DNA of 64,000 nucleotides from Minisyncoccia bacterium (GTDB lineage Bacteria; Patescibacteriota; Minisyncoccia; Phycocordibacterales; Zambryskibacteraceae): assembly GCA_041742965.1 (NCBI GenBank), contig JBGTNQ010000012.1, positions 1,379-65,378 of the forward strand, written 5' to 3'. The position numbers and the translations under genes were made by a program. Shown in pieces: positions 5,188-57,052 of this stretch; the first letter of the stretch is position 1, and every line of letters begins with the position of its first letter. The notes under the pieces are model-generated. The model was not told where the DNA came from and did no database searches. It worked only from the letters and a program-made list of their open reading frames with translations.

Positions 5188-5352
5188 TATTACGATGTTA
5201 CGTTAATAATGGATAGGATAATGGGGTCAACCACTATTCTTTTTTGGCATACAGAAATGGCGGCTGACCACATTTCCTTAAATCTTATAATAAAAAATAA
5301 CATCTCCCCGTTAATCTGACAACACTAGCTTGTAGATAGGTAAAATCTCTTC

Positions 5353-5631
5353 TTATTGCAGTCTTTTGCAAAACATTAGAATATCCTTTCCGCGAGGAGT
5401 GAGTTTGTGGCGAACACTCGGGCCATCACTCCTCTTCAAGACGAGACCGGCAATTGCCAGTTTTCGCACATGGTCAGAAGCATTCTCGTACCCAATATGC
5501 AAACGCTCGGAAATATCATCCACCGAAAGCTCTGGCTCTCTAAGTAAGAGATCGAGAATTTCAATACGGCGATGGTTTGCAAAGCCTTTCACAATTCGTT
5601 CTGTTTTGCGATAGTTTATTTTTTCCTTCAT
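5353..5631 (-). CDS. ArsR/SmtB-family HTH transcriptional regulator
   Basis: 92 aa; RRIEILDLLL...LSVDDISERLHIGYENASDHVRKLAIAGLV is a wHTH of the ArsR family. Its last 10 codons are encoded by the 30-nt motif at 5357..5387. Confidence 0.8.
   Translation of the reverse strand: MKEKINYRKTERIVKGFANHRRIEILDLLLREPELSVDDISERLHIGYENASDHVRKLAIAGLVLKRSDGPSVRHKLTPRGKDILMFCKRLQ
5357..5387. repeat. 30-nt motif copy 1 (attgcagtcttttgcaaaacattagaata) with TTGCA-N6-TGCAA inverted-repeat core
   Basis: Overlaps the ArsR C-terminal coding sequence and stop codon. Copies at 5667..5697 and 6969..6999. Confidence 0.8.
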
Positions 5632-5666
5632 ATTTTTACATTTTTACAATTCTATTTTTATGATAT

Positions 5667-5697
5667 CAGACTATTGCAGTCTTTTGCAAAATACTAG
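5667..5697. repeat. 30-nt motif copy 2
   Basis: Sits 36-66 nt upstream of the ArsR start and overlaps the metK stop codon. 2-3 mismatches to the other copies. Confidence 0.8.
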
Positions 5698-6626
5698 AAT
5701 GAAGAATGTTGGCTGAAATGACCCCAGTTAGAGGTGTCTTTGAACTTAACTTCATCCAATTTTAAATACTCCCGTATCCCACTTGGGCTAAGGTCATAAT
5801 CATTAATTTCTCTTTCTACCCCATCAATAATAGCCACGGCCATAACCGGCTTACTTTTGCCTATAGCATAAGCAAGTTTTGTATAGACTTCTTTTGCATT
5901 ATGTTTATTCAATAAATCAACAGCAATTCTCCGAGCCATATATGCGCCACTTCTATCTACTTTTGTATAATCTTTTCCAGAAAAAGAACCTCCACCAATT
6001 GGTATTTCGGGGCCATAATTATCTATTACCAGTTTCCTACCTGAAAGTCCTGTATCACTATCAAATCCGCCCAAGGACCATTCGCCAGATGGGTTGATAA
6101 GATACTCATCTGCTGAAATATTACTTTTTACAAGACCGAGCAATTCACTACTTTTTGTATTTTGAAAACTTGCGACGACCGTCGTCACTTTCCCAGCCTT
6201 TATGGTAACTTGAGTTTTGCCATCATAGGGATATATGGCAAATATTTTTTTACACAAGTCTCTAGCCAGAACATATTCAAGCGGTAAGTACTCTTTCGTT
6301 TCATTCGTAGCATAACCTTTCATTATTCCCTGATCTCCAGCGCCACCACTGTCTACTCCTTGCTTTATTGTAGTGCTTTGTAAAGCTATGCTTTTTATAA
6401 CCTTATAATTTTCACCCACAATACCATGCACAATATTTTCAATATTTGGTTTTGATTTTGAAGTCACCTCACCATTTATTGTTATCAAATTATGCCCACC
6501 CATTACTTCTATCGCCACACGACTTTCTTTGTCCCCTTCTAAATATGCGTCGAGTATACTGTCTGCAATAAAATCACAGATTTTATCTGGATGCATTGGG
6601 CTCACGAATTCACATGTTTTTTCCAT
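5694..6626 (-). CDS. metK: S-adenosylmethionine synthetase, short form
   Basis: Motifs HPDKICDFIADSILDA, GAGDQG and GGGSFSGKD are present. The 310-aa short MetK is typical of reduced genomes. Confidence 0.85.
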   Translation of the reverse strand: MEKTCEFVSPMHPDKICDFIADSILDAYLEGDKESRVAIEVMGGHNLITINGEVTSKSKPNIENIVHGIVGENYKVIKSIALQSTTIKQGVDSGGAGDQGIMKGYATNETKEYLPLEYVLARDLCKKIFAIYPYDGKTQVTIKAGKVTTVVASFQNTKSSELLGLVKSNISADEYLINPSGEWSLGGFDSDTGLSGRKLVIDNYGPEIPIGGGSFSGKDYTKVDRSGAYMARRIAVDLLNKHNAKEVYTKLAYAIGKSKPVMAVAIIDGVEREINDYDLSPSGIREYLKLDEVKFKDTSNWGHFSQHSSF

Positions 6627-6845
6627 AAAAACTAAAAATTCCTCTAATAAGAGGAAAGATTTTTTCTGCGTGGACTAGACGCAAGACATATCTTTCCTTC
6701 CGCCTAGGGCGGATGGTTGGATTTAGCACCTCAGCAAAATTGCTTTTTGATAGGTTGCTGTGGGGTCCACGAGCCAAATCTCGCTCTCCGTCCGTAGTTA
6801 CTACGAAGGAGGATACCTCCACTCTTGATCGAACTATTCAATTGT
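6627..6845 (-). promoter_or_regulatory. candidate SAM-I/IV-like riboswitch in the metK 5' leader, with an SD-sequestering expression platform
   Basis: The minus-strand RNA contains AUCAAGAGUGGAGG, GCAACC, GGUGCUAAAUCC and AAAGAUAUG blocks in S-box order. The 3' P1 strand GGAAAGAU is complementary to AUCUUUCC, which in turn pairs with the SD GAGGAA 10 nt upstream of the ATG. Confidence 0.4.
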
Positions 6846-7567: not shown

Positions 7568-7729
7568 TTTTCTCACCTCCTTTCCTGTGTAAAAATGTAG
7601 AACTGCTCTATTTAAAGATTAGCCAAAAGTAGTCTTGAGGTCAAGTACCCTCCTAAAAAAATCCAATATAATGAACAGCCCATCACCAGACGACCTTTAG
7701 GGGCTTGTTTATTAGTGTAAAATAGAGTT

Positions 7730-8125
7730 ATGAATACTTCTTCTTGGTATGAGACATTGGTGAGACCTGAGTGGGCGCCTCCGGCGTGGATATTCGGTCC
7801 CGTGTGGAGTGTGCTCTACATAATTATCGCCATCTCCTTCGGTGTGGTGTTTTATAAAATATGGAAAAAGGAGCTCCCCCATTGGATAGCATTACCTTTT
7901 CTCCTCAACTTATTCTTCAACCTCATCTTCAGCCCAATTCAGTTTGGTTTACAAAATAATCTCCTCGCTTCTTTAGATATTATTCTTGTGCTTGCAACTC
8001 TCATCTGGAGTATGGGTGCTGTTTGGAAGAGAGTGAAGTGGGTGGCTCTGGTCAATATTCCCTACCTCCTCTGGGTTTCTTTCGCTACGGTCCTTCAGCT
8101 GACTATTACTTATCTTAATTTTTAG
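7730..8125 (+). CDS. tspO: TspO/MBR family tryptophan-rich sensory protein
   Basis: WYETLVRPEWAPPAWIFGPVWSVLY...NLLASLDIIL...NIPYLLWVSFATVLQ is a classic TspO pattern with 5 TM helices. Confidence 0.8.
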   Translation: MNTSSWYETLVRPEWAPPAWIFGPVWSVLYIIIAISFGVVFYKIWKKELPHWIALPFLLNLFFNLIFSPIQFGLQNNLLASLDIILVLATLIWSMGAVWKRVKWVALVNIPYLLWVSFATVLQLTITYLNF

Positions 8126-9666: not shown

Positions 9667-10305
9667 TTATTTATACCAGCTCGTGTACCAACCTTGCATC
9701 TGCTGTATTTCTGCCGTCTGTGATGTCTGAATATCCTTTGCAAGCTGAAGCATCTCGCTACGATTCGTTCCCGATTCAAGCATTCTGGCCATCATAATTG
9801 CCATCTGGTGATGCGGGATCATTTGTTCAATGAATTCTTTGTCGAAATCAGGCGCATTTTTAAGCACATCAATATCCTGAGTGCTTCCCATGTGCATTCC
9901 GCCCTGAGACATCATTCCACCCATTCCAAAGCTGGTACCAACAGGAACACTCTTTCCAAACCAATCGATATACCATGCACGCATTTCCTGATTTTCTGCA
10001 GTCTGAGCTTTGAGGATATCCTCTGCTAGTGTCTTAATCTCCGAACGAGTTGCTTTCTCCAGGGCCAGGTTCGCCATAGCAATTGCTCCATCATGATGCG
10101 GGATCATTTGTTCAATGAAGTGCTTATCGATGGTGGTTGCAACTTGAGTGTTGCCATTTATTCTCTGTTCAGACCCCGAGTTATTTCTCCAGTTCATCAT
10201 TCCGTAACCGCCATATCGCATCATTGGGTAAAACACGACTGCCAATAGAAGACCTATTACGATTCCGCCGATTCCATATAAGATTTTGTTGTTTTGATTG
10301 TTCAT
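9667..10305 (-). CDS. DUF305-family protein (duplicated IPHH motif), putative metal-binding
   Basis: FIEQMIPHHDGAIAMA and FIEQMIPHHQMAIMMA repeats with an N-terminal TM. Confidence 0.7.
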   Translation of the reverse strand: MNNQNNKILYGIGGIVIGLLLAVVFYPMMRYGGYGMMNWRNNSGSEQRINGNTQVATTIDKHFIEQMIPHHDGAIAMANLALEKATRSEIKTLAEDILKAQTAENQEMRAWYIDWFGKSVPVGTSFGMGGMMSQGGMHMGSTQDIDVLKNAPDFDKEFIEQMIPHHQMAIMMARMLESGTNRSEMLQLAKDIQTSQTAEIQQMQGWYTSWYK

Positions 10306-13862: not shown

Positions 13863-13960
13863 ATAATACTACGTCGTCACCCCTCGCTTCGCTCGGGATG
13901 GTTAAAATATAAAACACTTAGGATAAGCATTAAGATTTTATACCAGCTGCCGGACTTGGA

Positions 13961-14112
13961 CCGTGAGTACACTATCGGTCACAAGTTCTGGCTTACTATC
14001 CAGACTCGCGACCCCGTCTCGTCCGCCCAAGGCGGACTGCGACTTTCGATTCCAATCTCGGCTAGAAATGATGCTTCGCGCAGACTGCATTTAGCAGTCT
14101 TTGCGAATCATT
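13961..14112 (-). repeat. tRNA-3'-end-associated element E6 (152 nt), flanked by 15-nt direct repeats of the tRNA-Gln 3' end
   Basis: gctgccggacttgga occurs at 14113-14127 (tRNA T-arm/acceptor) and again at 13946-13960. The element carries agtccgccttgggcggacgagacggggtcgcgag and ends ...aacttgtgacc next to the distal repeat. Confidence 0.6.
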
Positions 14113-15515: not shown

Positions 15516-16157
15516 CTACGGTCTAACAGTCACAAACATCCCAGCCTGAAGCCTGCCCATGGTCGGATGGACCGCCTCGGTCTCCGCCATGATTTGAATG
15601 GGCGAATTCGCTCCAGCGGGATTGACGGACCACGCGGTGATCTCGCAAGTCACCGGATTTACCGTGGCGACCGCTGCATTTGTGGAGAAGCAGCGATACC
15701 CAACCGAGATCCCTTCATCCGCAGTAACCTTCACCACCGGAGTGAACTTCTGTCCGACTCGCAAGTCCAGACTGGTCGGGGTGATAGTGATGCCCCTCAA
15801 CTGCGGGCGATTCACCACCACTACCACGACAGTGTCCTTCTTTGCCGGATCGGCGCGCGAGGTGCCAGAAACCCGACCCTTGCCGAGACCAACACCGGTC
15901 ACGAGACCGGTGGAGGAGACCTGAAGCACGCTCGGATTGAGCGAACTCCAGATGACATCCTTGTCAGTAGTGCCAGTGACGACAGCAATGAGCTGAACCG
16001 ATTCGTCCTGATAAATCTGTGACGAGTCAGGCGACAACCTGATGGTGACCGTGGGCTTTGACGGCCCAGTGGGGTCACCGTGGTCATCACAATCGTGCCA
16101 TCTCGTGCACCCCGCGAGGGTGACGAAGAAAAGCAAGAAAACGGTGCGAGCGAGCAT
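15516..16157 (-). CDS. lipoprotein with Big_2 (bacterial Ig-like group 2) domains, in a GC-rich islet
   Basis: Signal plus lipobox MLARTVFLLFFVTLAGC. The tandem domains VTIRLSPDSSQIYQDESVQLIAVVTG...LQVSSTGLVTGVGLGKGRVSGTS are Big_2-like. GC is far above the flanks. Confidence 0.7.
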   Translation of the reverse strand: MLARTVFLLFFVTLAGCTRWHDCDDHGDPTGPSKPTVTIRLSPDSSQIYQDESVQLIAVVTGTTDKDVIWSSLNPSVLQVSSTGLVTGVGLGKGRVSGTSRADPAKKDTVVVVVVNRPQLRGITITPTSLDLRVGQKFTPVVKVTADEGISVGYRCFSTNAAVATVNPVTCEITAWSVNPAGANSPIQIMAETEAVHPTMGRLQAGMFVTVRP

Positions 16158-18060: not shown

Positions 18061-18636
18061 ATGCACAAACAGCAAGTCCGCGCCTTGGACAGGGTCGCGG
18101 AGGTCATCTGGCAGAATGGGCTGTCCAAGAACAGCTATCTCTCTCTGGAGAGCATCGTGCTGGTACTCACCTTCATCAGCAAGAGAGACGATACCGGCCA
18201 CATCAGGCAGTTAAACTTCCTGGAATGGTCAATTCTGCTCGAAAGCACCCGGCAGTTGTCTGGCTACGGCAAGTACAACTGGAGAATGCTTTATCTCCTG
18301 GTCTTGAGGATTGGAATCCGTGATTTCCTTTCTCAAGAACCGGCTGGTGGCCTCGAACGCTGTCGGAAAATAGACTGGCTCTCAAGCCTGTCTAGGGAAC
18401 TTTCTCCTCAAGGATTTCTTCGGGAGAATCTCCTGCCCGACAACAGCGGTGAGTTCACAGAAGTTGTGGTCCCACTTCTCGACGTTCTACACCAGAGCGC
18501 CGAAGTGCTGGATGCCAGTCGCCATCTCAAGACGCGAATCATCCGCGCCAAGAAGATGAGACCGACTGCAAGGGTGCGAAAAATCAGATCCTGGTTTGTC
18601 CGCGAAGAACACTGGATGATGGTAGCACATGCCTAG
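18061..18636 (+). CDS. hypothetical protein (191 aa) in a GC-rich islet
   Basis: SD GGAGG is 6 nt upstream of the ATG, and a 13-bp GC hairpin terminator follows at 18675-18708. GC is higher than the flanks. No recognisable domain. Confidence 0.5.
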   Translation: MHKQQVRALDRVAEVIWQNGLSKNSYLSLESIVLVLTFISKRDDTGHIRQLNFLEWSILLESTRQLSGYGKYNWRMLYLLVLRIGIRDFLSQEPAGGLERCRKIDWLSSLSRELSPQGFLRENLLPDNSGEFTEVVVPLLDVLHQSAEVLDASRHLKTRIIRAKKMRPTARVRKIRSWFVREEHWMMVAHA

Positions 18637-24834: not shown

Positions 24835-27027
24835 TTGACCCTAATGGCAAAAGGTAATGGAAAAAAACTTCTGATTGTCGAGTCGCCGGCGAAAGCAAAA
24901 ACAATCTCAAAATATCTAGACGGCGAATATGAAGTAGTCGCTTCTATTGGGCATGTTCGTGATTTACCTAAAACAAATAAAAAGGCAATAGATATTGAGG
25001 GAGGCTTCATTCCACACTATGAAATATCTAAAGGTAAAGAAAAAGTAATAAGTGAAATAAGAAAATTAGCAGGAGGAGCAGAAGATGTCATCCTGGCCAC
25101 AGACCCCGACCGTGAAGGAGAGGCTATAGCTTGGCATATTAGTGAGGCTGTGGGCCTTAAAAATCCAAAGAGGGTAGTCTTCCACGAAATCACCAAAGAG
25201 GCGGTAACAGAGGCAATAAAGCATCCACGGGATATTGATTTAAACCTTAAGATTGCCCAAGAGGCGCGCCGAGTACTGGACCGACTAGTTGGATACGACC
25301 TATCTGGACTTATTTGGAAAAAGGTCAGATACGGCCTTTCTGCTGGCCGTGTCCAATCTCCTGCACTCCGCATCATCATGGAGCGAGAGAGAGAAATCCG
25401 AGCTTTTAAACCTGAAACATTCTGGACAATATCCGCTGACTTTACCACAGAGAAAAATCTAATGATCACCTTGATCTGTGATGAAGAACCTAGAGAAGAA
25501 AAGGGAGTTATAAATATTTTAGACACAGCCAAAAAAGAACCTTGGTCAATTATTGATATAAAAGAGACAACAGTAAAAAGATCTCCTCGACCCCCCTTCA
25601 TCACTTCAACACTTCAACAAACAGCCAGTTCTAGATTAGGGTTTTCTCCTTCACGGACAATGGGTGTGGCACAAAAGCTTTATGAAGCTGGACTCATTAC
25701 ATATATGCGTACCGACAGCACCAACTTAGGGTCTCAGGCCAAAAAACAGATTGAGGAAGTAATAAAAAACAAGTTTGGAAAACAATACTACGAACCACAC
25801 TCTTATAGTAAGAAAAGTAAAAATGCTCAAGAAGCTCATGAAGCAATAAGACCCACAGACTTCGGGAAAGAAACTGGTGGTATAAATGAAGAACAGAAAA
25901 AACTCTATAATCTCATCTGGGCCAGAACAGTTGCCTCTCAGATGGTCTCCGCCGATACTCTTCGTACAAAAATAAGTGCCAATGTTAAAAGTGCTTCAAT
26001 ACCTAATTTTTCTATAACTGGATCCCGTGTCATATTTGATGGGTGGCTCATCGCTGATCCAAGGGCACGACAAGAGGATGTGGAGCTCCCAAAATTATTG
26101 AAAGGCGAAAATATCATACTCAAAGATATAAAAAGTGAAGAAAAGGAGACTACCCCACCCGCCAGATATTCAGAAGCTGGACTCGTAAAAGAACTTGAAA
26201 AAAGAGGCATAGGTAGACCTTCAACATACGCCTCAATAATAAAAACTATTATAGATAGAGGCTATGTACTAAAAGAACAGCGTGCGCTCGTACCGACGGA
26301 CACAGGGGATGTGGTGAGTTCTTTTCTCGAAGGAAATTTCGGAGACTATATAAGCGACACCTTTACCGCAGAGATGGAGAACAAGCTTGATGATATTGCT
26401 ATTGGTAAAAGAGAGTATGTAAAGACACTTTCTGATTTTTACAAACCATTTTTGAAAGATATAAAATCTAAAGATAAGTTGGAGAAACTAACAAATATGG
26501 GCGTGGCTGATGCAAAGTGGAAGTGTCCAAAATGCGGAAGTGGAATGATTATTAAGCTCGGAAAAAATGGCCGTTTCTTATCTTGTGATAAATTCCCTGA
26601 CTGCACAGGAGCACGAACTATAGATGGTGAAGAGATAATGGGGCCCAAAGATACGGGAGAACTTTGCCCAGAATGTGGTAAGGCTAACTTAGTAGAGCGC
26701 GACGGCCGATTTGGAAGATTTATAGCATGTGGCAGATACCCAAAATGTAAATTTGTAAAAGAAGACCCAGAAGCCAGAAAAAAACTACTAACAGGTGTTA
26801 AGTGCCCTGTATGTAAGGACGGAGAAATGATGGAAAGAAGGGGACGATTTGGTATTTTCTATTCCTGTAGTAACTATCCCAGTTGTAAAAATGCAATAAA
26901 AGCTAAGCCAACAGGAAACATGTGCCCTATGTGCAATTCCCTCATGATGGATGGCACGAAAACTATACCAGAACGCTGTAGTAACAAGAGCTGTGCAAAC
27001 CACAACCCGCATAAACTAATGAAGTAG
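24835..27027 (+). CDS. topA: DNA topoisomerase I with C-terminal zinc ribbons
   Basis: TOPRIM motifs LLIVESPAKAKTI and DPDREGEAIAWH, the catalytic region, and four C4 zinc ribbons. Confidence 0.9.
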   Translation: MTLMAKGNGKKLLIVESPAKAKTISKYLDGEYEVVASIGHVRDLPKTNKKAIDIEGGFIPHYEISKGKEKVISEIRKLAGGAEDVILATDPDREGEAIAWHISEAVGLKNPKRVVFHEITKEAVTEAIKHPRDIDLNLKIAQEARRVLDRLVGYDLSGLIWKKVRYGLSAGRVQSPALRIIMEREREIRAFKPETFWTISADFTTEKNLMITLICDEEPREEKGVINILDTAKKEPWSIIDIKETTVKRSPRPPFITSTLQQTASSRLGFSPSRTMGVAQKLYEAGLITYMRTDSTNLGSQAKKQIEEVIKNKFGKQYYEPHSYSKKSKNAQEAHEAIRPTDFGKETGGINEEQKKLYNLIWARTVASQMVSADTLRTKISANVKSASIPNFSITGSRVIFDGWLIADPRARQEDVELPKLLKGENIILKDIKSEEKETTPPARYSEAGLVKELEKRGIGRPSTYASIIKTIIDRGYVLKEQRALVPTDTGDVVSSFLEGNFGDYISDTFTAEMENKLDDIAIGKREYVKTLSDFYKPFLKDIKSKDKLEKLTNMGVADAKWKCPKCGSGMIIKLGKNGRFLSCDKFPDCTGARTIDGEEIMGPKDTGELCPECGKANLVERDGRFGRFIACGRYPKCKFVKEDPEARKKLLTGVKCPVCKDGEMMERRGRFGIFYSCSNYPSCKNAIKAKPTGNMCPMCNSLMMDGTKTIPERCSNKSCANHNPHKLMK

Positions 27028-27031
27028 ATTT

Positions 27032-27158
27032 GGAAGTGCGCAGTCTTCACTGCATACGCGCAAGTTTTCGTGAGACGGAGGCATATTTTTTCAGCAGAAA
27101 AAATGCCGAGTCGGGGTCGCAGAACCCCGCCCCTGACGAGGGGCGGGGTATTTGTGAC
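27032..27158 (+). repeat. element E1 (~127 nt) inserted at the topA 3' end, flanked by 75-nt direct repeats (26957..27031 and 27159..27233)
   Basis: The repeat cgaaaactatacc...gaagtagattt, which includes the topA stop codon, occurs twice. The insert carries ttttttcagcagaaaaaa and ccgagtcggggtcgcag and ends atttgtgacc. Confidence 0.65.
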
Positions 27159-27233
27159 CGAAAACTATACCAGAACGCTGTAGTAACAAGAGCTGTGCAA
27201 ACCACAACCCGCATAAACTAATGAAGTAGATTT

Positions 27234-30416: not shown

Positions 30417-30420
30417 CAAT

Positions 30421-30548
30421 GATTCACGAAAACAGCCGGGGGCTGTTTGAGTGATTTATCAATGCGAGGTGGATGAGGAATCGAAAGCCGGAGGCAGACG
30501 TGCCGAGGCGGGGTCGAGAGATTTTTCAGCAGAAAAATACTCGTGACC
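30421..30548 (+). repeat. element E2 (128 nt) between 21-nt direct repeats of the tRNA-Trp 3' end (30400..30420 and 30549..30569)
   Basis: gattccttcatcgcccgcaat, running from the T-loop to the discriminator plus 4 nt, is duplicated. The insert carries ggaatcgaaag, ccgaggcggggtcgagag and atttttcagcagaaaaa and ends tactcgtgacc. Confidence 0.65.
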
Positions 30549-30588
30549 GATTCCTTCATCGCCCGCAATCTAGTTATATTTATATATC

Positions 30589-32125: not shown

Positions 32126-32602
32126 TCATTTTTGAGCTCTTGTAGGCAGGAATCGGCCACGACACCAAGCCACAGAATACTTGGTCAGAGTTCCAGTGAG
32201 AAAGCACATCACTAGATGTGCTAGGCACCCAGGAACCACCTGCAAAATCGAGACTCCTGCAACTAAAGAACTTGCCGTGTATGTTGGTAAAATGAAAGCC
32301 GACAAGAGAAAGCCATCAACCAACATGACCCAAACTAACGATGAGCCCTTCGGAGCATAGCGCGCGCTAACAAACTCAACCCTAGCAGTATAATACTTGC
32401 TCAGCACATACTTAGAACACAAGTAAATGATATGAGCAGTACCAACCTGCGCCAAAGAAAACCCCCCTATGAATTTGCTAATCAGGGGCACCACCCCTCC
32501 CAAGGGAATACCCACCAAGAGAAGTCCTAGGTTTCCAACAAACCACTCTCTGAGGGTAAGATAGGCGGATTGCCAGCTCCACTTTCTGAAACTCAGTATC
32601 AA
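32126..32602 (-). CDS. hypothetical polytopic membrane protein
   Basis: 158-aa ORF with 4 predicted TM segments and no recognisable family. Confidence 0.4.
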   Translation of the reverse strand: MILSFRKWSWQSAYLTLREWFVGNLGLLLVGIPLGGVVPLISKFIGGFSLAQVGTAHIIYLCSKYVLSKYYTARVEFVSARYAPKGSSLVWVMLVDGFLLSAFILPTYTASSLVAGVSILQVVPGCLAHLVMCFLTGTLTKYSVAWCRGRFLPTRAQK

Positions 32603-35953: not shown

Positions 35954-36120
35954 AGGTATTGAAAATCTCAGTGTTTATACTGAGCGGACTAAGCGAGTCG
36001 GAGTATCGCCGGGAAGGATTCGGTCAGGAGTTTTCGTCTACTGACAAAACTCACAACCCTGCCTCCCTCGCCTTCGCTCGGTCCGGCTTTCTCGTCTCTA
36101 CCCGGACAGCACCGACTTGC

Positions 36121-36153
36121 AAAAAAGCTGAGTCCTCATGACTCAGCTTTTTT
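36121..36153. terminator. bidirectional terminator hairpin
   Basis: aaaaagctgagtc-ctca-tgactcagcttttttt. Confidence 0.65.
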
Positions 36154-36161
36154 TAGCAAGT

Positions 36162-43645: not shown

Positions 43646-43717
43646 AGGCGAAGCTCTGCAAAAGCTTTATTCACGGGTTCGATTCCCGTCCACGCCTCAA
43701 GTAAAAAGTATGACTTT
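43646..43717 (+). tRNA. tRNA-Cys (anticodon GCA)
   Basis: Acceptor GGCGTGG/CCACGCC, anticodon stem AAGCT/AGCTT with loop CTGCAAA, T-arm GGGTTCGATTCCCG. Confidence 0.8.
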
Positions 43718-43727
43718 AGTGTGATAT

Positions 43728-43870
43728 CTTTTACTTTGATGAGGACGGAAGTATGCAAATTTATTTGCATACTTAGGGAATCGAAAGGCGCAGTGATATT
43801 TTGTGAGTTCACAAAATTACGAGCCGTGGTCACGACCGAGCCGAGCGACGGCGAGGTGAGAGTTGTGACC
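43728..43870 (+). repeat. element E3 (~143 nt) between 27-nt direct repeats of the tRNA-Cys 3' end (43701..43727 and 43871..43897)
   Basis: gattcccgtccacgcctcaagtaaaag is duplicated. The insert carries gggaatcgaaagg, ttttgtgagttcacaaaa and gtggtcacgacc and ends gagttgtgacc. Confidence 0.65.
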
Positions 43871-43945
43871 GATTCCCGTCCACGCCTCAAGTAAAAGTGT
43901 GGCTTTGTAAGACATCTTTTACTTAGTTGGTGTGAAGAAATATAT

Positions 43946-44107: not shown

Positions 44108-44379
44108 CAGAAGCTACAGCAACCTGCCCTGCGGCAGGTTTTGTGCTTCTGTGCGGACCGGAGCCATGTTTTGTGACCACACAAAACAGACGAGGTGGGG
44201 TCGAGAAATTTTGTGAGCGACGGCGAACAAAATATTCGTGACCACAAAGGACGCAATTGGCATGATCAAGATTTTTCCGTCAGGAAAAATACTTGTGACC
44301 ACAATCCTGTGCGAACCATACTTCCCCTCTCACAAACAATACTTGTGACCCGAGTTAAATATGATAAAGTATTTCTCAT
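44108..44379 (+). repeat. E4: tandem array of four short units, each ending in ...GTGACC, with AT-stem hairpins, between tRNA-Lys and tRNA-Leu
   Basis: GTGACC at 44173, 44238, 44295 and 44345, each followed by acacaaaa / acaaagg / acaatcc (tRNA-trailer-like). Internal cgaggtggggtcgag, ttttgtgaccacacaaaa and atttttccgtcaggaaaaat. Confidence 0.6.
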
Positions 44380-44461
44380 GCTGGGGTGGCGGAATTGGTA
44401 TACGCGCTAGTCTTAGGAACTAGTGGAGAAATCCATAGGAGTTCAAGTCTCCTCCCCAGCA
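44380..44461 (+). tRNA. tRNA-Leu (anticodon TAG)
   Basis: Acceptor GCTGGGG/CCCCAGC, anticodon stem CTAGT/ACTAG with loop CTTAGGA, long variable arm, T-arm GGAGTTCAAGTCTCC. Confidence 0.8.
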
Positions 44462-44466
44462 CAAAC

Positions 44467-44595
44467 GAAAGTAGTGAGTTTGTGCTCTAGGCGCATTTTT
44501 TGCTTTGCAAAAAGAGCAGAGACTTGAAGGCCGGAGTCCGCCTTGGGCGGACGAGGCGGGGTCGCGGACTTTTTCAGCAGAAAAAGATCTGTGAC
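44467..44595 (+). repeat. element E5 (129 nt) between 22-nt direct repeats of the tRNA-Leu(TAG) 3' end (44445..44466 and 44596..44617)
   Basis: aagtctcctccccagcacaaac is duplicated. The insert carries ggagtccgccttgggcggacgaggcggggtcgcggac and ctttttcagcagaaaaag and ends atctgtgacc. Confidence 0.65.
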
Positions 44596-44666
44596 CAAGT
44601 CTCCTCCCCAGCACAAACTCACTACTTTCGTTTGTGCTGTATAAAATTTGACTTTTTGCTTGTTTT

Positions 44667-45794
44667 GTGATAGTGTCCGAAACAGATACACCTGTTCTCT
44701 GTAACAAACTACTCACAAAAATGCGCCTTGCGCAAAGGAGATCTCGCATGTTGGCCATTATTCTCACAGGGCTTACCCTTTTGGGTTTGGGAGCGCTCAT
44801 CAGATTCTTGGGCTCGATTGCCAAGATCTGGGGCATCATCCCCGCTCAAACATTCGCCCTAGTCACAACCTGGGCGAACCGCAACACAGATTTCACCAAG
44901 GACGGTGGAACTGTAGGTGGAACAGTTGAAAATCTCCTTCATGGAATTCCAGGTAAAGTACTCGTAAGAGACCCAGACCCAATGAAATGGAGATTTGAAG
45001 ACGGAGAAGAAGAGCGCAGTCTCCTCTTCGGTCTTCTCGGCGTCCAGTGGGTCGGATTATTCCGAGCACTTCGCCTGAACAAGATCAGCATAATAAGGTA
45101 CGGCAAGGAAGGAGGAGGGGTTGATGAAAAGGAAGAGATTGAGGCGGAAGACCATGAATTTCTAAGAACCTCCGCTTCCAGATTCATCTTCTACTCTTCA
45201 AGCAGTTTCGTCAGAGTAAAGAACGCCGAAACAGCTGGGGTATATGCCTTGGATTGGGAATTCATAGTCATTACCGAACGTATCTTTCCGTTACGTTCAG
45301 TGCTAAGAGTTCCTGATCCGTTTGCCAACCTTTCAGCAATGGTCTCAAGGGCGGTGATCAGAAAGACCAGCCTACTTGAACCAGAAGATTTTTTGAGTAC
45401 GACCGAAAGTGCCAAAAACAAAAGGGCGGTGATCAAGGCCATCATGTCAATCTCGAAGGATGCCGAGAGAGAACTTGGTCTCAAAATCACCGAAGTAACA
45501 CTGAGGTCGGTGAGCCCTGAAGACAAGTACTGTGAGAGCCTCGAACTAGAGGCAAAGACAAGAAGAGAAAACGAGGCCGCTGTGGCCATAGCTGAAAAAG
45601 ACAAGGCGGTTGGTCTCCTCAAGAACAGCATCGAAGCTGACCAGGTGGAACGGGTGGTGATGAGAATTGCAAACAACCCGGGAGCCATCCAGGTTCGAGC
45701 CCTTGAAGCCTACCGAGACAACAAGACCGTCAAGGTCTATGCTCCTGGGGGAAAGCTCTCACAGATTCTTCCTGATTTGACCGACGGTGAGTGA
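44667..45794 (+). CDS. SPFH/band-7-like domain membrane protein in a GC-rich island (N-terminus uncertain)
   Basis: TM segment LAIILTGLTLLGLGALI, then YALDWEFIVITERIFPLRSVLRV...ELGLKITEVTLRSVSPEDK...LELEAKTRRENEAAVAIAEKD, resembling the SPFH core plus a coiled coil. High local GC. Confidence 0.45.
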   Translation: MIVSETDTPVLCNKLLTKMRLAQRRSRMLAIILTGLTLLGLGALIRFLGSIAKIWGIIPAQTFALVTTWANRNTDFTKDGGTVGGTVENLLHGIPGKVLVRDPDPMKWRFEDGEEERSLLFGLLGVQWVGLFRALRLNKISIIRYGKEGGGVDEKEEIEAEDHEFLRTSASRFIFYSSSSFVRVKNAETAGVYALDWEFIVITERIFPLRSVLRVPDPFANLSAMVSRAVIRKTSLLEPEDFLSTTESAKNKRAVIKAIMSISKDAERELGLKITEVTLRSVSPEDKYCESLELEAKTRRENEAAVAIAEKDKAVGLLKNSIEADQVERVVMRIANNPGAIQVRALEAYRDNKTVKVYAPGGKLSQILPDLTDGE

Positions 45795-45915
45795 GTAGTT
45801 TGAAAAGACCAAGCACAGCTGTGCTTGGCCTTTTCTTATGTATTGACAAATGGGTACTAAGTATGCTATAATTAGATAAGAGATCTTTCGCAATTAAACA
45901 TGATTCTAGGAGGCA

Positions 45916-47385
45916 GTGATGAACCCGTTCCTAAGAAACCAACTCCGGCTTTCTTCAAAGAAAGCCTTGGAGTCGGCGACTCGCAAAATCAGTGGTTTCT
46001 TCGTCGCGGCCAAGAAAGCGATCGGTCGCCCACTCACTTGGACATGGACCAAAACTAAGGAGGTAGGAGTGAGTATCAAAAAAGTAGTTGGTGGACTCTT
46101 CAGCTCTGCTGGTCTGTATGTCAAAGATCAGTGGAAGAAGAATGCTCGACGAGTAGTTGAGGTGGTGTTGTATTTCATCATCATCCCAATACTCCTCTTC
46201 ACCTTCTACGTGAATTTGGGAGTCTCTATCAAAGAGCTTCCTTTCGCGAAGATTGCGTTGTACGGAGGAATCGGACTCGCTGTTGCCCTCTTGCTCTGGC
46301 TCAGTTGGAGCAAGAGGAATAAGTTAGTCAGCGCAGTTCGAGGTATTGGGAGCAGTGGAGGTGGTGGAAATAGCGGTGACGCTATTTCAAGATTCTTCAC
46401 TTCTGTTGCCGTGTTTCTTGTCTTCAATGCCGCCTACTGGGCGATGTTGAGTCAAATCCACGGCGACTGGGGATCAGAGTATTTTACTGGCACGTGGTTA
46501 TGGTCTCCAGCCTTCATTGTGCTGGCCGTGGCAACACTTGTCATGGGGTTCTCCTACGGGAGGGCAAACAAGCAGTTCGGATTCCTCCGAGTGCCGGCGG
46601 CGATAATGATTACCGTGACGGTAATCATGGCAATGCTTCCTGGTATCGGCGGGCCAGTACGGCCCAAGATACCGGGTTTCGCCGAAGCTTCGGCGGTGAA
46701 TTATACCCTGCCGAGGAAGCTAGCGGATGCGCCCTGGATAGTCTATCAGGGGCCGGTCAAGGACTCGGTCCTTGCTGCCTTCCCCAGCGATACCACTATG
46801 TGGAATATCGCTGCAGCCGAAAGTGGCTTCCGTCAGTTTGATAGTGACGGAGTCCCTCTTCCGAACGACGAGGGGTCAAGCGCTGTGGGAGTCTTCCAGA
46901 TTATGGAAGGTCTCCATGGTCGCGACTGCGGAGCCGACCTCGATATCCATACCATTTCGGGGAATATCGCTTGCGCGAAAATTCTCCGAGAGCGTAATGG
47001 GTACCACGACTGGGCAAGTTCTGCCTGGAAGTGGCGCGACTGGTACGCCACCGAGCCAGAGCACTGGTCATTCGACAGGGCTCCAGAGTACCTTCTGGCA
47101 AGGAGTGCTCTCGGTGACGAGGTCGTGATCGTCGACGCCCCTGTGGGCAGTGAGAGTATTGCTGTCCACACCAATGGACGGAAGTACTGTTGGTCGGCTG
47201 ATGGCGAGGGAGTGCCATACCTCGTCATCGACGATGCTGGTCAGACAGCCACCATCAATCCGGGTGAGAGCGTTAAGCTCACTCGGTATGCGCGGTGGTT
47301 GAAGTTCCAATCACTTGGAGAAGTTCCCCTGAAGATTGTTTTCAGGCGGAGACCTCCTGGGGTCATGAGTTGCAGTACCGCCTGA
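45916..47385 (+). CDS. polytopic membrane protein with a lytic-transglycosylase (SLT-like) domain, in a GC-rich island
   Basis: Five or more TM helices, then NIAAAESGFRQF...GSSAVGVFQIMEGLHG, which matches the SLT catalytic Glu-Ser and GLMQ motifs. High local GC. Confidence 0.55.
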   Translation: MMNPFLRNQLRLSSKKALESATRKISGFFVAAKKAIGRPLTWTWTKTKEVGVSIKKVVGGLFSSAGLYVKDQWKKNARRVVEVVLYFIIIPILLFTFYVNLGVSIKELPFAKIALYGGIGLAVALLLWLSWSKRNKLVSAVRGIGSSGGGGNSGDAISRFFTSVAVFLVFNAAYWAMLSQIHGDWGSEYFTGTWLWSPAFIVLAVATLVMGFSYGRANKQFGFLRVPAAIMITVTVIMAMLPGIGGPVRPKIPGFAEASAVNYTLPRKLADAPWIVYQGPVKDSVLAAFPSDTTMWNIAAAESGFRQFDSDGVPLPNDEGSSAVGVFQIMEGLHGRDCGADLDIHTISGNIACAKILRERNGYHDWASSAWKWRDWYATEPEHWSFDRAPEYLLARSALGDEVVIVDAPVGSESIAVHTNGRKYCWSADGEGVPYLVIDDAGQTATINPGESVKLTRYARWLKFQSLGEVPLKIVFRRRPPGVMSCSTA

Positions 47386-47405
47386 TTTTGGGCGGTGAAA
47401 AACGA

Positions 47406-47476
47406 GGGCGACGCGAAAGCGTCGCCCTTTTCTCATACCAAAACCCCCTCCGCCTTGGGCGGAGGGGGTTTTGTAT
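47406..47476 (+). terminator. two tandem Rho-independent terminators
   Basis: gggcgacgc-gaaa-gcgtcgccc-ttttctc, then aaccccctccgcc-ttg-ggcggagggggtt-ttgtatt. Confidence 0.75.
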
Positions 47477-47482
47477 TCCAAA

Positions 47483-47764
47483 CTAATCAAGAAGTCTGTC
47501 TATATATTGCGGTTGACTCGCCCGAAGTCCAAATGTATTGAGAATTATATTTATAATTCCAAAAACAGAAACCATAATAATCATGCCTATAATCCCCCAC
47601 TTCATATGACTCTTGCCCTTCTCTCTTGCACTAGGGTCGTCACCTGATGCAACGAAAGAGAATATTCCCCAGAAAAAGAAGAGAATTGCTACAGCGAAAC
47701 CAAACACAATCAGCGGATTGAGTATGATTTCCGCTATACGAGCCAAAAATTCAGATATGGACAC
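47483..47764 (-). CDS. small two-TM membrane protein, paralog 1 of 6 (TrbC/VirB2-pilin-like)
   Basis: Core LIVFGFAVAILFFFWGIFSFVASGDDPSAREKGKSHMKWGIIGMIIMVSVFGIINI matches the shared family pattern. Confidence 0.5.
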   Translation of the reverse strand: MSISEFLARIAEIILNPLIVFGFAVAILFFFWGIFSFVASGDDPSAREKGKSHMKWGIIGMIIMVSVFGIINIILNTFGLRASQPQYIDRLLD

Positions 47765-47778
47765 GGAACAAATTTAAA

Positions 47779-48159
47779 TTAATTAGTCTGAAGATTTCCA
47801 ACACCTGGCGTAGTGCCTAAATTCTGACTTTGCTGAATACCCAAAGCATTACCAACAAAGCTAACAAGACCCCATACAGAAACCATCACAAACAAAGTTA
47901 CAACTCCCCATATCATCATGTTTTTACCTTTTGCTGCATCTACTTCATCTCCAGCTGCAAGGACAAACTTAGCCAATCCCCAGAAAAAGAAGAGAAGAGC
48001 CAAAGCTACTACTAGTGGCAACAAAAGATCAACAATCCTCCCAATAGACCTGAAAAATGTCTCAATATTTGTCAGCTGTGGACCAGCAGTACCAGCCATA
48101 GTTAACAAAGGAAGAGCGAAAACTGCTAAACTACCTATAAATTTCCTTATCATATTCAA
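47779..48159 (-). CDS. small two-TM membrane protein, paralog 2 (signal peptide + VirB2-like core)
   Basis: LLLPLVVALALLFFFWGLAKFVLAAGDEVDAAKGKNMMIWGVVTLFVMVSVWGLVSFV. Confidence 0.5.
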   Translation of the reverse strand: MNMIRKFIGSLAVFALPLLTMAGTAGPQLTNIETFFRSIGRIVDLLLPLVVALALLFFFWGLAKFVLAAGDEVDAAKGKNMMIWGVVTLFVMVSVWGLVSFVGNALGIQQSQNLGTTPGVGNLQTN

Positions 48160-48256
48160 TAAATTAATATTAAAACCTATAAATTTCTTTCTAATATACC
48201 TACTAATAGTATCACGAAAAAATCGAAAAGACAGGCATATGTGGAAAACAAAAAAA

Positions 48257-48550
48257 TCAATTATTAACCTTTGGGTTTAATTGAGAGGGAGCATTACCTC
48301 CAATGAGGAAAATAACATCTTCTTGTATAAACCTTACAATTCCCCAAATAGACACCATAACGAATAAAACAACAATCCCCCACACCATCTTATTTTTTCC
48401 CTCTTGCTTCTTCTTCACATCATCACTCTCTTTTATAAATATAGCCAAACTCCAAAAGAAAAAGAGTAGAGCCACAGCCACAGAAAGTGGGAGTAGTAAA
48501 TTCACCAAGCTTCCAAATGCCGATATTAAATCTTGAATATTTGAAATCAT
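48257..48550 (-). CDS. small two-TM membrane protein, paralog 3
   Basis: LLLPLSVAVALLFFFWSLAIFIKESDDVKKKQEGKNKMVWGIVVLFVMVSIWGIVRFI. Confidence 0.5.
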   Translation of the reverse strand: MISNIQDLISAFGSLVNLLLPLSVAVALLFFFWSLAIFIKESDDVKKKQEGKNKMVWGIVVLFVMVSIWGIVRFIQEDVIFLIGGNAPSQLNPKVNN

Positions 48551-48933
48551 GGACTTGTTGTAGGAAATTGAGGAATAGTACTAATAGGTTGACCAAACAG
48601 GTCACCAGTAATGAGATTTATTATTCCTATAAACGAAACCATTACAAACAAAGCCAAAATACCCCATTTCATAAGACTCTTCCCCTCTTCAATAACCTTC
48701 TCATCCCCAGAGCCCCTGATAACTTTCGCCAAACCCCAGAAAAATACTAGGAGAGTGGCTCCAACAATCACAGGTAGAAGACTATTAATAAAACTTGTAA
48801 ATAAGCAGAGAGTTTCTGCAAAGGTGGTTGGTGGTAATGGCACATTAGCCGGACAGGCAGCAAAAACAGGCACTGGTAGAAATACCGAGAAAGAAAGAAT
48901 TAGAATTAAAAATAGAGAAGAGAAACGAATCAT
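48547..48933 (-). CDS. small two-TM membrane protein, paralog 4 (signal peptide)
   Basis: LLPVIVGATLLVFFWGLAKVIRGSGDEKVIEEGKSLMKWGILALFVMVSFIGIINLI. Shares a 4-nt overlap with its neighbour. Confidence 0.5.
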   Translation of the reverse strand: MIRFSSLFLILILSFSVFLPVPVFAACPANVPLPPTTFAETLCLFTSFINSLLPVIVGATLLVFFWGLAKVIRGSGDEKVIEEGKSLMKWGILALFVMVSFIGIINLITGDLFGQPISTIPQFPTTSP

Positions 48934-49367
48934 GCGCGAAGTTGATTAATAGTAGTCTCAATGACTTGAGCTATAACCCAAGCGCCAAGCAATATTGCCG
49001 TACCTATGGCGGCGTTTGTAAAGGCTGCCTTGCCCTCCCCAATCTGCTTTTCATCCCCACGAGCCGTGACTAAAAGAAAACCTGCATACATTATATAGAG
49101 AACAGCTATTACACCCCCTAGAGGTAGAACTATGTTGTTTATTACAAGAGATATAAATTCATAAAGAGTTGAGGCTCCACGAACTGGGTTTTGAATCTTT
49201 ATTGTTGTAACTACGGGATTTGGACCCTCACCTTCTCCTGGATCTAATCCGGGGTCAGGACCCTCAGACTCACCACCAAGAAGTAAGATTGGTGAAAAGA
49301 GAAACAAAAAAACTAAAATATGTATGCTACTTCTTTTCAATTTCATTATATTCATATTATATATCAA
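48930..49367 (-). CDS. small two-TM membrane protein, paralog 5 (signal peptide, Gly/Pro/Glu linker)
   Basis: IVLPLGGVIAVLYIMYAGFLLVTARGDEKQIGEGKAAFTNAAIGTAILLGAWVIAQVI resembles the VirB2 pattern ILGP...AVL.I..G..wM.G. Confidence 0.5.
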   Translation of the reverse strand: MIYNMNIMKLKRSSIHILVFLFLFSPILLLGGESEGPDPGLDPGEGEGPNPVVTTIKIQNPVRGASTLYEFISLVINNIVLPLGGVIAVLYIMYAGFLLVTARGDEKQIGEGKAAFTNAAIGTAILLGAWVIAQVIETTINQLRA

Positions 49368-49757
49368 TTATTCAAGAATCGAATAACCATCATCAAGCAA
49401 AGCTGATAAAATCAAATCCACAATGAGCCAAGCAGCGAGCATAAATATAAGCCCCTTTGCCACCTTTACAAAAACATCCTTTCCTCTGTCTCTCTGACCT
49501 TGGTTACCTCCAGCGGTCATAATGAGAAAACCCGCCCAAGCGAAAGAAAGAGCTGCAAGCGGTATAGCTATTAAAATTAGAAAATTGATAAAATTCTGAG
49601 CAAGTTCTATGAGTTTGTTGTATGAACATGGACCAAGGGCAGAACCTGGGGCATCATCACAAACGATTAGATTTTCCCCAGCCATAACCCCAACAGTACC
49701 TGGTAGCGGAGTGGCCAATAAACAAAGCATTATAAAACTAAATAATATTTTTTTCAT
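49368..49757 (-). CDS. small two-TM membrane protein, paralog 6 (signal peptide)
   Basis: LILIAIPLAALSFAWAGFLIMTAGGNQGQRDRGKDVFVKVAKGLIFMLAAWLIVDLI. Confidence 0.5.
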   Translation of the reverse strand: MKKILFSFIMLCLLATPLPGTVGVMAGENLIVCDDAPGSALGPCSYNKLIELAQNFINFLILIAIPLAALSFAWAGFLIMTAGGNQGQRDRGKDVFVKVAKGLIFMLAAWLIVDLILSALLDDGYSILE

Positions 49758-56641: not shown

Positions 56642-57052
56642 ATGCGTATCAGTTCTAGAAAAACTATTGACCTGTATCAGAGAGATTTGGTATTCATGCT
56701 TCTTCTCAACCTTGAAGAAGCCGGGATGTTACCAATAAGCTTGGAAGATCTTCACTTGAGAGTCTTCCCTGTCTTCATTGGCAACATTGAAGCTCAAAGG
56801 GGAGTGACCACCATGTTCTTCCGAGACCACTCCTTTAGCCATTTCAGAGACCTCGACCAGATCCTGTTTGGATACAATGGTGGGGGATTTCTAAAAGTCG
56901 AGAAAGGGAGGGTGCTCTACACGATGCACCCAACTCGACTGAGAGAATTTGTTTCTAGATCGATTGGAGATGGCTACACCGTGGAAGACCTCTCCGCCGC
57001 AACTGCCTGTGCGTGTTTCTACGCAGAAATGACCAGAGAGGTGGCCGCATGA
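56642..57052 (+). CDS. hypothetical protein (136 aa) in a moderately GC-rich islet
   Basis: ORF bounded by the rpsA terminator upstream and a GC hairpin downstream. No family recognised. Confidence 0.4.
   Translation: MRISSRKTIDLYQRDLVFMLLLNLEEAGMLPISLEDLHLRVFPVFIGNIEAQRGVTTMFFRDHSFSHFRDLDQILFGYNGGGFLKVEKGRVLYTMHPTRLREFVSRSIGDGYTVEDLSAATACACFYAEMTREVAA

Follow-up and report, generated by a model that had tools for sequence, protein, structure and literature searches.

The window analysed here is a 64-kb stretch of the Minisyncoccia bacterium assembly GCA_041742965.1 (contig JBGTNQ010000012.1, positions 1,379 to 65,378 of the forward strand), with an overall guanine-plus-cytosine (GC) content of ~40%. 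At 44.7-47.5 kb it carries a block in which GC rises to 0.48-0.60, compared with ~0.40 window-wide. The block holds two real genes, open reading frame 1 (ORF1, 44748-45794) and ORF2 (45919-47385). It is preceded by a tRNA-Leu(TAG) gene (44380-44462, + strand, called by ARAGORN and Rfam), which serves as its left landmark and lies outside it. On its other side a tandem array of six VirB2-like pilin paralogs of the type IV secretion system (T4SS) runs toward it (47483-49757, - strand); PF18895 (T4SS_pilin) is matched by all six, by five of them above the gathering score. A preliminary description of this sequence had taken the block for a genomic island. Here we describe the two genes, follow their alleles through related lineages and weigh how the block came about.

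Genes and transcription signals of the block

ORF1, on the + strand, encodes a protein of 348 residues with a single N-terminal transmembrane helix (hydrophobic segment at residues 2-20), a divergent SPFH/Band 7 domain and, after the domain, a charged stretch rich in Glu, Ala and Lys (residues ~265-320). We place its start at 44748 and not at the GTG at 44667, because it is the ATG next to the Shine-Dalgarno sequence that recurs from locus to locus; the upstream ATG is out of frame in two of the related loci described below (L003 and L009). The window ORF1 alone matches Pfam Band_7 at E 2e-4 and 21.9 bits, under the gathering score of 23.6. The SPFH-like character proposed earlier is borne out by the family as a whole: all eight members match Band_7, the best of them at E 6e-9, and among PDB structures the family profile picks out PH stomatin (E 2.8e-6) as well as QmcA and flotillin-1. 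Word-indexed homolog searches returned only two or three proteins per query, also with a nine-sequence profile, and a HMMER scan of 1.84 billion representative proteins gave 75 clusters at 50% identity (E<1e-30). Judged by these profile matches, ORF1 is a divergent SPFH protein of a small, distinct family.

ORF2, also on the + strand, encodes 488 residues. A basic N-terminal tail (residues 1-78, with 18 Lys/Arg against 3 Asp/Glu) is followed by five hydrophobic transmembrane segments (residues 79-243), a lysozyme-like domain (residues ~289-375, nucleotides 46783-47043) and a beta-rich C-terminal domain (residues ~400-488). The loop charges obey the positive-inside rule, so residues 244-488 are predicted to lie outside the cell, and with them the lysozyme-like domain and its catalytic-type Glu301-Ser302 pair. 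Across the seven aligned alleles that keep the domain, no variation is seen at Glu301, Ser302, Gly324, Gln327, His333, one Asn and two Trp. No Pfam hit was obtained for the window ORF2. The best member of the family against SLT_3 (PF18896) is the ortholog in the closest relative, L001, with E 3.1e-5 and 24.8 bits at a gathering score of 27. The family profile finds c-type lysozymes in the PDB at E 0.014, and an hhalign comparison with hen egg-white lysozyme covers 73 columns (probability 61%, E 8e-5), with Glu301 placed on Glu35. The lysozyme-like call is thus drawn from motifs and sub-threshold profile matches; at that level the polytopic SLT-like protein of the preliminary description is recovered, with its five transmembrane segments, the invariant Glu-Ser and a G-x-x-Q motif.

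Each gene has signals of its own. A promoter-like site and 5' leader precede ORF1 (44648-44747, + strand), with a -35 hexamer TTGACT at 44648-44653, a TG-extended -10 region at ~44666-44676 that was seen by eye and missed by the consensus scan, a leader hairpin TGCGCCTTGCGCA at 44722-44734 and a Shine-Dalgarno sequence AAAGGAG at 44734-44740. ORF1 is followed by a terminator-like hairpin (45802-45835, + strand) whose 17-nucleotide arms are 94% complementary; it folds at -19.9 kcal/mol (z -4.5), and CCTTTTCTT comes next. A sigma-70-type promoter for ORF2 lies at 45843-45872 (+ strand) and agrees with the consensus at 12 of 12 positions: TTGACA, 18 nucleotides, TATAAT, and an upstream TG. These predicted signals show ORF1 and ORF2 to be separate transcription units.

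Three stacked terminator hairpins (47376-47473) form the right boundary of the variable sequence. The individual hairpins occupy 47376-47397, 47404-47429 and 47439-47473, and the triple fold is very stable on either strand (-68.6 kcal/mol on the + strand, z -9.1; -68.2 kcal/mol on the - strand; z about -9). The last of them, between ORF2 and the convergent pilin gene, is predicted to be able to act both ways. The preliminary description had noted two strong terminators at this end of the block; there are three.

Composition of the block

ORF1 has 49% GC and ORF2 54%, against 40% for the remaining window genes, whose GC at third codon positions (GC3) is 0.33. The GC3 values of the pair are 0.53 and 0.60, compared with a median of 0.337 for the 52 other ORFs of the window, and correspond to robust z scores of 4.3 and 5.8 against these ORFs. 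Measured against the rest of the window, codon usage gives a Karlin B distance of 0.48 for ORF1 and 0.53 for ORF2; other window genes longer than 300 residues have 0.25 +/- 0.05, with a maximum of 0.35. A deviation in codon usage, which the preliminary description had implied, is therefore present. Since GC at the first and second codon positions is up only slightly and GC3 far more, amino-acid composition is not the main cause, and the effect sits at synonymous sites. In window genes for which strong expression would be expected (infB, gyrA, ftsZ, clpB and the gene for the S1 protein), GC3 is an ordinary 0.32-0.37, which indicates that the excess of the pair is not the usual expression-linked bias.

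The abrupt changes of GC claimed at ~44620 and ~47480 hold on the right side only. The right edge is sharp: at ~47.47 kb, coincident with the three terminator hairpins, GC drops from 0.52 to 0.39. The left edge is blurred, as the cluster of tRNA genes and small elements at 43.8-44.6 kb already has a GC of 0.45-0.555. GC drops back to 0.44 in the promoter and leader of ORF1 (44.6-44.8 kb), and the spacer between ORF1 and ORF2 is AT-richer (~0.42 GC).

The block is not unique in the window in its GC3, as at least six other ORFs are also GC3-rich. These are found at 15516-16157 (- strand, GC3 0.69), 18061-18636 (+ strand, GC3 0.65), 56642-57052 (+ strand), 7730-8125 (+ strand), 32126-32602 (- strand) and 9667-10305 (- strand). 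All six are small genes, with GC3 of 0.47-0.69 compared with the median of 0.34, and their products comprise a Big_2-domain lipoprotein, TspO, an AlaE-like membrane protein, a DUF305 protein and two proteins without a Pfam match. The genome thus holds several compositional islets, not one.

The locus in related lineages

We traced homologs of the pair to ten contigs, which amount to eight lineages beyond the window and nine lineages in all. L001, L002, L005 and L010 show no difference where they overlap and count as one lineage; the others are L003, L004, L006, L007, L008, L009 and L011. The records of L005, L006 and L007 are labelled as Saccharibacteria metagenome-assembled genomes (MAGs) and that of L008 as a Paceibacterota MAG, and the remainder are unbinned metagenome contigs. 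The nine-lineage sample contains no closely related strains (>95% average nucleotide identity).

A homolog of ORF2 fills the slot in all nine lineages, and a homolog of ORF1 lies upstream of it in eight; in L011 the gene at that place has diverged too far to be called ORF1. All eight lineages with sequence beyond the pair have an array of PF18895 pilin genes that runs toward it, so the link to the pilin-like array noted in the preliminary description holds throughout. In L001, L006, L007 and L008 the pair is followed by the pilin array, by the genes for the SBP and a methyltransferase and, where the contig reaches that far, by gyrA. L009 has the same order as the window: infB, rbfA, tRNA-Cys, tRNA-Leu(TAA), tRNA-Lys, tRNA-Leu(TAG), the pair, the pilin genes, the SBP gene, the methyltransferase gene and gyrA. 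L004 and L011 have the pair and then pilin genes. Five lineages have tRNA-Leu, as a gene or as its 3' end, ahead of the pair, among them L009 and also L006, where tRNA-Leu(TAG) is separated from the pair by two extra genes; the contigs of L008 and L011 start with a tRNA-Leu-like 3' end. Five independent assemblies (L001/L010, L003, L007, L008 and L011) break within ORF1 or no more than ~320 nucleotides upstream of it, and these breaks at the left border fit either repeats or strain heterogeneity.

The site is therefore the same in Saccharibacteria and their close relatives in the candidate phyla radiation (CPR): it is flanked by a tRNA-Cys/Leu/Lys/Leu(TAG) cluster on one side and by convergent VirB2-like pilin genes on the other. 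No empty slot was found among the nine lineages, and the neighbours are the same wherever enough flank is available. The L001 array has one gene more, and its pilins share 62-89% identity with the corresponding ones of the window.

The compositional bias goes with the pair. In all eight lineages with flank sequence the GC3 of the pair exceeds the pooled GC3 of the flanks, by 0.06 to 0.36; the values for ORF1/ORF2 are 0.53/0.60 against 0.33 in the window, 0.63/0.68 against 0.32 in L006 and 0.72/0.71 against 0.41 in L007. The spread among the alleles of the relatives is wide, with a GC3 of 0.48 in L001 and 0.63 in L006. High-GC Actinobacteria had been named as potential hosts; the genome scan gave CPR contigs only, which leaves a high-GC actinobacterial donor without support.

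The upstream signals of ORF1 are more constant than the protein. The -35 hexamer is found in all six loci whose alignment covers the position, and the -10 region, leader hairpin and Shine-Dalgarno sequence are common to most of the eight aligned loci, with proteins that are only ~40% identical. A hairpin of the form GCGC-N3-GCGC abuts the Shine-Dalgarno sequence in the window, L001, L003, L006 and L009, and is altered or absent in L004, L008 and L011; it may be a translational or stability signal.

We found no publication on the pair, and it is not obviously present in Southlakia epibionticum. Two genes of that species were considered and rejected. SEML1_0023 (463 residues), which follows a tRNA gene and converges on a pilin gene, is an STT3-like glycosyltransferase. 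SEML1_0609, the sole SPFH entry in the annotation table of the genome, is an ordinary slipin-family protein.

Alleles and flanks differ in their relationships

The flanks of the block in the window and in L001 are closely related, with identities of 92% for GyrA, 87% for the S1 protein, 76% for the SBP, 68% for the methyltransferase and 89% for the first pilin. The pair itself is only 44% (ORF1) and 42% (ORF2) identical between the two. L001 and L006 show the opposite pattern: their ORF1 proteins are 69% identical and their SBPs only 50%. Allele relationships thus contradict flank relationships, which points to horizontal exchange; in this the preliminary description's account of origin is upheld. 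The nearest relatives of ORF1 and ORF2 also differ. Between the window and L003, ORF1 is 70% identical and ORF2 only 28%, so the two genes have separate histories. Nucleotide-level homology has corresponding limits: between the window and L001 it begins at 47465, within the last terminator hairpin, and between the window and L003 it is confined to 44648-45772, which comprises the promoter, the leader and ORF1.

We therefore consider it moderately probable that the block is a hypervariable cassette of two genes at a fixed site, exchanged horizontally and not inserted as an island, and that it probably serves the interface between pilus and cell wall. Recombination within the conserved flanks would swap its alleles, the presumed breakpoints being near 44.64 kb, at 47.465 kb and in the spacer between ORF1 and ORF2. 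Such allele replacement would be feasible given the natural competence of Saccharibacteria. There are two candidate causes for the GC3 excess, namely GC-biased conversion under frequent recombination and a common pool of alleles that comes from higher-GC Saccharibacteria; the lasting excess would be a by-product of one or the other and not the relic of a single recent transfer.

The strongest competitor, which we nevertheless regard as unlikely, is strictly vertical descent with very fast evolution, in which selection on mRNA stability or codon choice sets GC3 and no horizontal exchange takes place. All lineages keep the position, the promoter and the leader, and the protein families are small and CPR-restricted, as one would expect under vertical descent; the GC3 raised everywhere is likewise what a gene-intrinsic constraint predicts. 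Such descent cannot, however, yield an L001 ORF1 that is closer to that of the distant L006 than to that of its sister, the window, nor different nearest relatives for the two genes, and the ordinary GC3 of the genes expected to be highly expressed also argues against it. Balancing selection that preserved very old allelic lineages could produce the same picture as transfer. This stands as a formal alternative and counts against the exchanged cassette.

The tRNA repeat does not enclose the genes

The preliminary description had derived the island from an att-like duplication after tRNA-Leu(TAG). The duplication is real: the 22-mer AAGTCTCCTCCCCAGCACAAAC occurs in exactly two copies, one at 44445-44466 within the tRNA gene and one at 44597-44618, where chance would produce none. 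Both copies lie upstream of ORF1 and enclose only 44467-44596 (~130 nucleotides), so they bracket a structured element and not the gene pair. A third copy was not found; the closest sequence at the far end (47.3-47.7 kb) differs at 7-9 of 22 positions. The element (44463-44639, + strand) ends with the second 22-mer copy and a hairpin; a perfect 30-nucleotide inverted repeat has its arms at 44457-44486 and 44610-44639. It folds at -59.7 kcal/mol (z -5.4), and its covariance-model match at 44517-44606 scores 101 bits. Similar elements follow four other tRNA genes and the topA 3' end in the window, each with a copy of the gene end and without cargo, which shows that the tRNA repeats belong to these small elements.

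A classical island of foreign high-GC genes, recently integrated at tRNA-Leu(TAG) by site-specific recombination, is accordingly very improbable. What speaks for it is the adjoining tRNA gene with its duplicated 3' segment, the atypical GC3 and codon usage and the sharp right edge. The repeat copies are both on the same side, the block has no integrase or mobility gene (neither of the two genes has a recombinase domain), and the elements of the same kind elsewhere carry no cargo. The presence or absence of the block in related genomes, a comparison proposed in the preliminary description, decides in the same direction: the same genes stand in the same place in nine of nine lineages, deep relatives included, with GC raised wherever it is measurable.

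A remnant of prophage lysis or anti-phage defence, that is, a membrane-bound endolysin with an SPFH partner, is just as improbable. In its favour are the membrane-bound lysozyme-like domain, the unusual composition and the fast diversification, all of them frequent among phage-related genes; phage machinery had been named earlier as one setting for the SLT-like protein. The window pair has no PHROG match, and the only weak one in the family, to a "lipoprotein", concerns the ORF1 of L006. No PADLOC match was obtained, tblastn against 50,697 phage records and a scan of viral contigs found no homolog, no other phage genes are adjacent, and the pair keeps its place in the chromosome across deep lineages. 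An assembly or binning chimera, conceivable where MAGs are wrongly joined at repeats such as the small elements just upstream, can be dismissed with near certainty because independent JGI, Logan and ENA MAG assemblies agree on the architecture in nine lineages.

Small structured elements beside tRNA genes

The element after tRNA-Leu(TAG) belongs to a family of structured sequences of ~130-190 nucleotides that lie directly 3' of tRNA-Gln, Trp, Tyr, Cys, Leu(TAG) and Lys in the window. Family members were located at 13940-14112 (- strand), 30418-30570 (+ strand), 35995-36161 (- strand), 43699-43892 (+ strand) and, after tRNA-Leu(TAG), 44463-44620 (+ strand); a weaker, degenerate copy follows tRNA-Lys (44147-44252, + strand). 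The five elements other than the Lys copy end in the 3' part of the adjacent tRNA, from just after the T-loop GGTTC. Their core reads GGGAATCGAAAG...ACGAGGCGGGGTCGCGAG-hairpin-ACTTGTGACC, and the predicted fold is a three-way junction. In the closing helix, 7-8 nucleotides complementary to the target pair with the start of the copied target, and this pairing covaries with tRNA identity. Compensatory changes occur in 18 of 38 predicted pairs, on the basis of only five sequences. Rfam gave no match for the elements and found only tRNAs in the region.

The topA 3' end (26957-27233) carries an element as well, with a covariance-model match at 27061-27169 (51 bits), so the target is not restricted to tRNA genes. 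It sits between exact 75-nucleotide copies of the gene end (26957-27031 and 27159-27233). The right-hand copy begins just after GTGAC(C), and its first 8 nucleotides pair with AGTTTTCG of the element. The relatives have a second subtype (GGGATCGAAAAG.CTGAATATATCGCGCGG...), found in L009 at 5347-6121, 6467-6760 and 7587-7903 and in L008 at 1-215. One of the copies in L009 adjoins an ORF for an HNH endonuclease of 185 residues (5571-6128), between tRNA-Cys and tRNA-Leu(TAA). A piece of 33 nucleotides is 97% identical between the window (44269-44301) and L009 (7862-7894), with a different tRNA adjacent in each. The family may be a new small mobile or guide-bearing element.

The 13-mer hairpin CCGCCTTGGGCGG occurs at 44538, 47450, 14023 (- strand) and, with one mismatch, 6700, where chance would produce none. 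Two of its copies lie within tRNA-linked elements and one is the core of the terminator that could act in both directions, in agreement with the earlier remark that the terminator reuses the core of the tRNA-associated elements. The terminator itself (47439-47473) was considered as an element copy and rejected: the covariance model finds no copy at 47.4 kb, and only a hairpin of 13-20 nucleotides is common to both.

Possible function and comparison with known systems

From the predicted proteins and their neighbours, we infer an accessory cell-envelope role for the pair, tied to the pilin array. ORF2, anchored by its five transmembrane helices, would display the lysozyme-like and beta-rich domains outside the cell and cleave peptidoglycan locally. 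It would do so in the manner of VirB1, either for assembly of the pilus or T4SS or for a breach of the host cell wall. ORF1 would build an SPFH scaffold in the same membrane and thereby confine or regulate ORF2. Exposure at the interface between symbiont and host would account for the fast diversification.

Several observations weigh against this proposal. The lysozyme-like assignment stays under the Pfam gathering score in every member of the family. AlphaFold2 models, computed from a three-sequence alignment, have low confidence, with a predicted local distance difference test (pLDDT) score of 44.9 for full-length ORF2 and 48.0 for the ectodomain; a Foldseek search of the PDB with the latter gave only weak cupin-like matches, none at E<=0.001. 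The position equivalent to Asp52 of lysozyme (ORF2 residue ~321, SSAVG) is Asp in L001, L003, L006 and L008 and Ala in the window, L004, L009 and P0006 alleles. The Ala fits a lytic transglycosylase and equally an inactive enzyme, and the split between Asp and Ala suggests two catalytic types or loss of activity. In L007, ORF2 (1111-1821, 236 residues) keeps the transmembrane part and the C-terminal beta domain and lacks the lysozyme-like module. Genes for VirB4, VirD4 and VirB6 were not found in the 64-kb window, and none of its ORFs of at least 600 residues is VirB4 or VirD4; the link to a T4SS thus comes from the pilin array alone. Contact between ORF1 and ORF2 is a conjecture, since ORF1 could have either orientation in the membrane. 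The architecture of L007 also prompted a comparison of ORF2 with NfeD proteins; this was rejected, as none of nine members had an NfeD match even at E<=1.

Saccharibacteria are known to carry VirB2-like pilin arrays, and in Southlakia epibionticum these are essential (PMC10633639; bioRxiv 10.1101/2025.01.22.634366). In a survey of T4SS across the CPR, most VirB1 homologs are reported to lack an association with virB4, and other glycosidases may substitute for them (bioRxiv 10.1101/2025.01.22.634366). ORF2 resembles VirB1-type hydrolases (VirB1 itself, and PrgK, TcpG and TrsG in Gram-positive systems) in its predicted lysozyme/SLT-superfamily domain with the Glu of the E-S motif, its membrane anchor, the position of its gene beside T4SS pilin genes and a presumed local opening of peptidoglycan. 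It differs from them in the five-helix anchor, the long basic N-terminal tail, the extra beta-rich C-terminal domain and the absence of a CHAP or LytM domain. In addition, its gene is hypervariable, GC3-rich and not near virB4, virB6 or virD4, and its match to the superfamily is sub-threshold. With SLT_3 proteins and c-type (GH22) lysozymes it shares the motif pattern IAxxES...(S/D)xG(I/V/L)(F/L)QI...CAK..L...W..W, whereas its score of 24.8 against the 27 bits required, the Ala or Asp at the Asp52 position and a fold that is putative set it apart.

The gene for an N-anchored SPFH protein beside the gene for a polytopic membrane protein recalls the pairs HflK/C-FtsH, stomatin-NfeD, QmcA-YbbJ and flotillin-NfeD2. 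In solved structures those SPFH proteins form oligomeric membrane assemblies, and the HflK/C assembly encloses its client FtsH. ORF2, in contrast, belongs neither to the proteases nor to the NfeD proteins, each gene of the pair has its own promoter and terminator, and the ORF1 family is small (~75 clusters).

The closest parallels for the locus as a whole are hypervariable cassettes at fixed sites, such as the pneumococcal capsule locus between dexB and aliA and the O-antigen clusters between galF and gnd, which are exchanged through conserved flanks. The pair shares with these a constant slot, conserved flanks, divergent alleles at odds with the genome, atypical composition and cell-surface products, which are predicted here. 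It differs in having only two protein genes and no glycan pathway, and its GC lies above that of the genome, whereas theirs lies below. With tRNA-integrated islands the block has in common the adjacent tRNA, the partial duplication of the tRNA 3' end and the atypical composition; it is unlike them in that the repeats do not flank the genes, no integrase is present and no relative without the genes was found. The parts of the cassette are of known kinds.

Implications

The locus offers a clean natural case in which to ask why a recombining cassette retains a composition different from that of its genome. It also illustrates how a tRNA gene plus a jump in GC can mislead, as the tRNA repeats here belong to a separate family of tiny elements, which may merit study in their own right.

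To a bolder version of the exchanged cassette we give a low probability. The pair could be a host-specificity module of the Saccharibacteria pilus/T4SS, in which a membrane-tethered muramidase, confined by an SPFH scaffold, opens the symbiont or host wall where the two cells touch. Its alleles would spread between lineages by natural transformation under diversifying selection, and recombination at this hot spot would be so frequent that GC-biased conversion holds GC3 10-35 points above the genome. If this were true, biased conversion would have left a trace resolved to a single locus, which is rare in bacteria.

Saccharibacteria grown in culture are attached to bacterial hosts, and pilin arrays and the T4SS are essential in the one species tested. 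The conserved yet hypervariable pair beside the pilin array is a concrete candidate for a step in breaching the cell wall or in setting host range.

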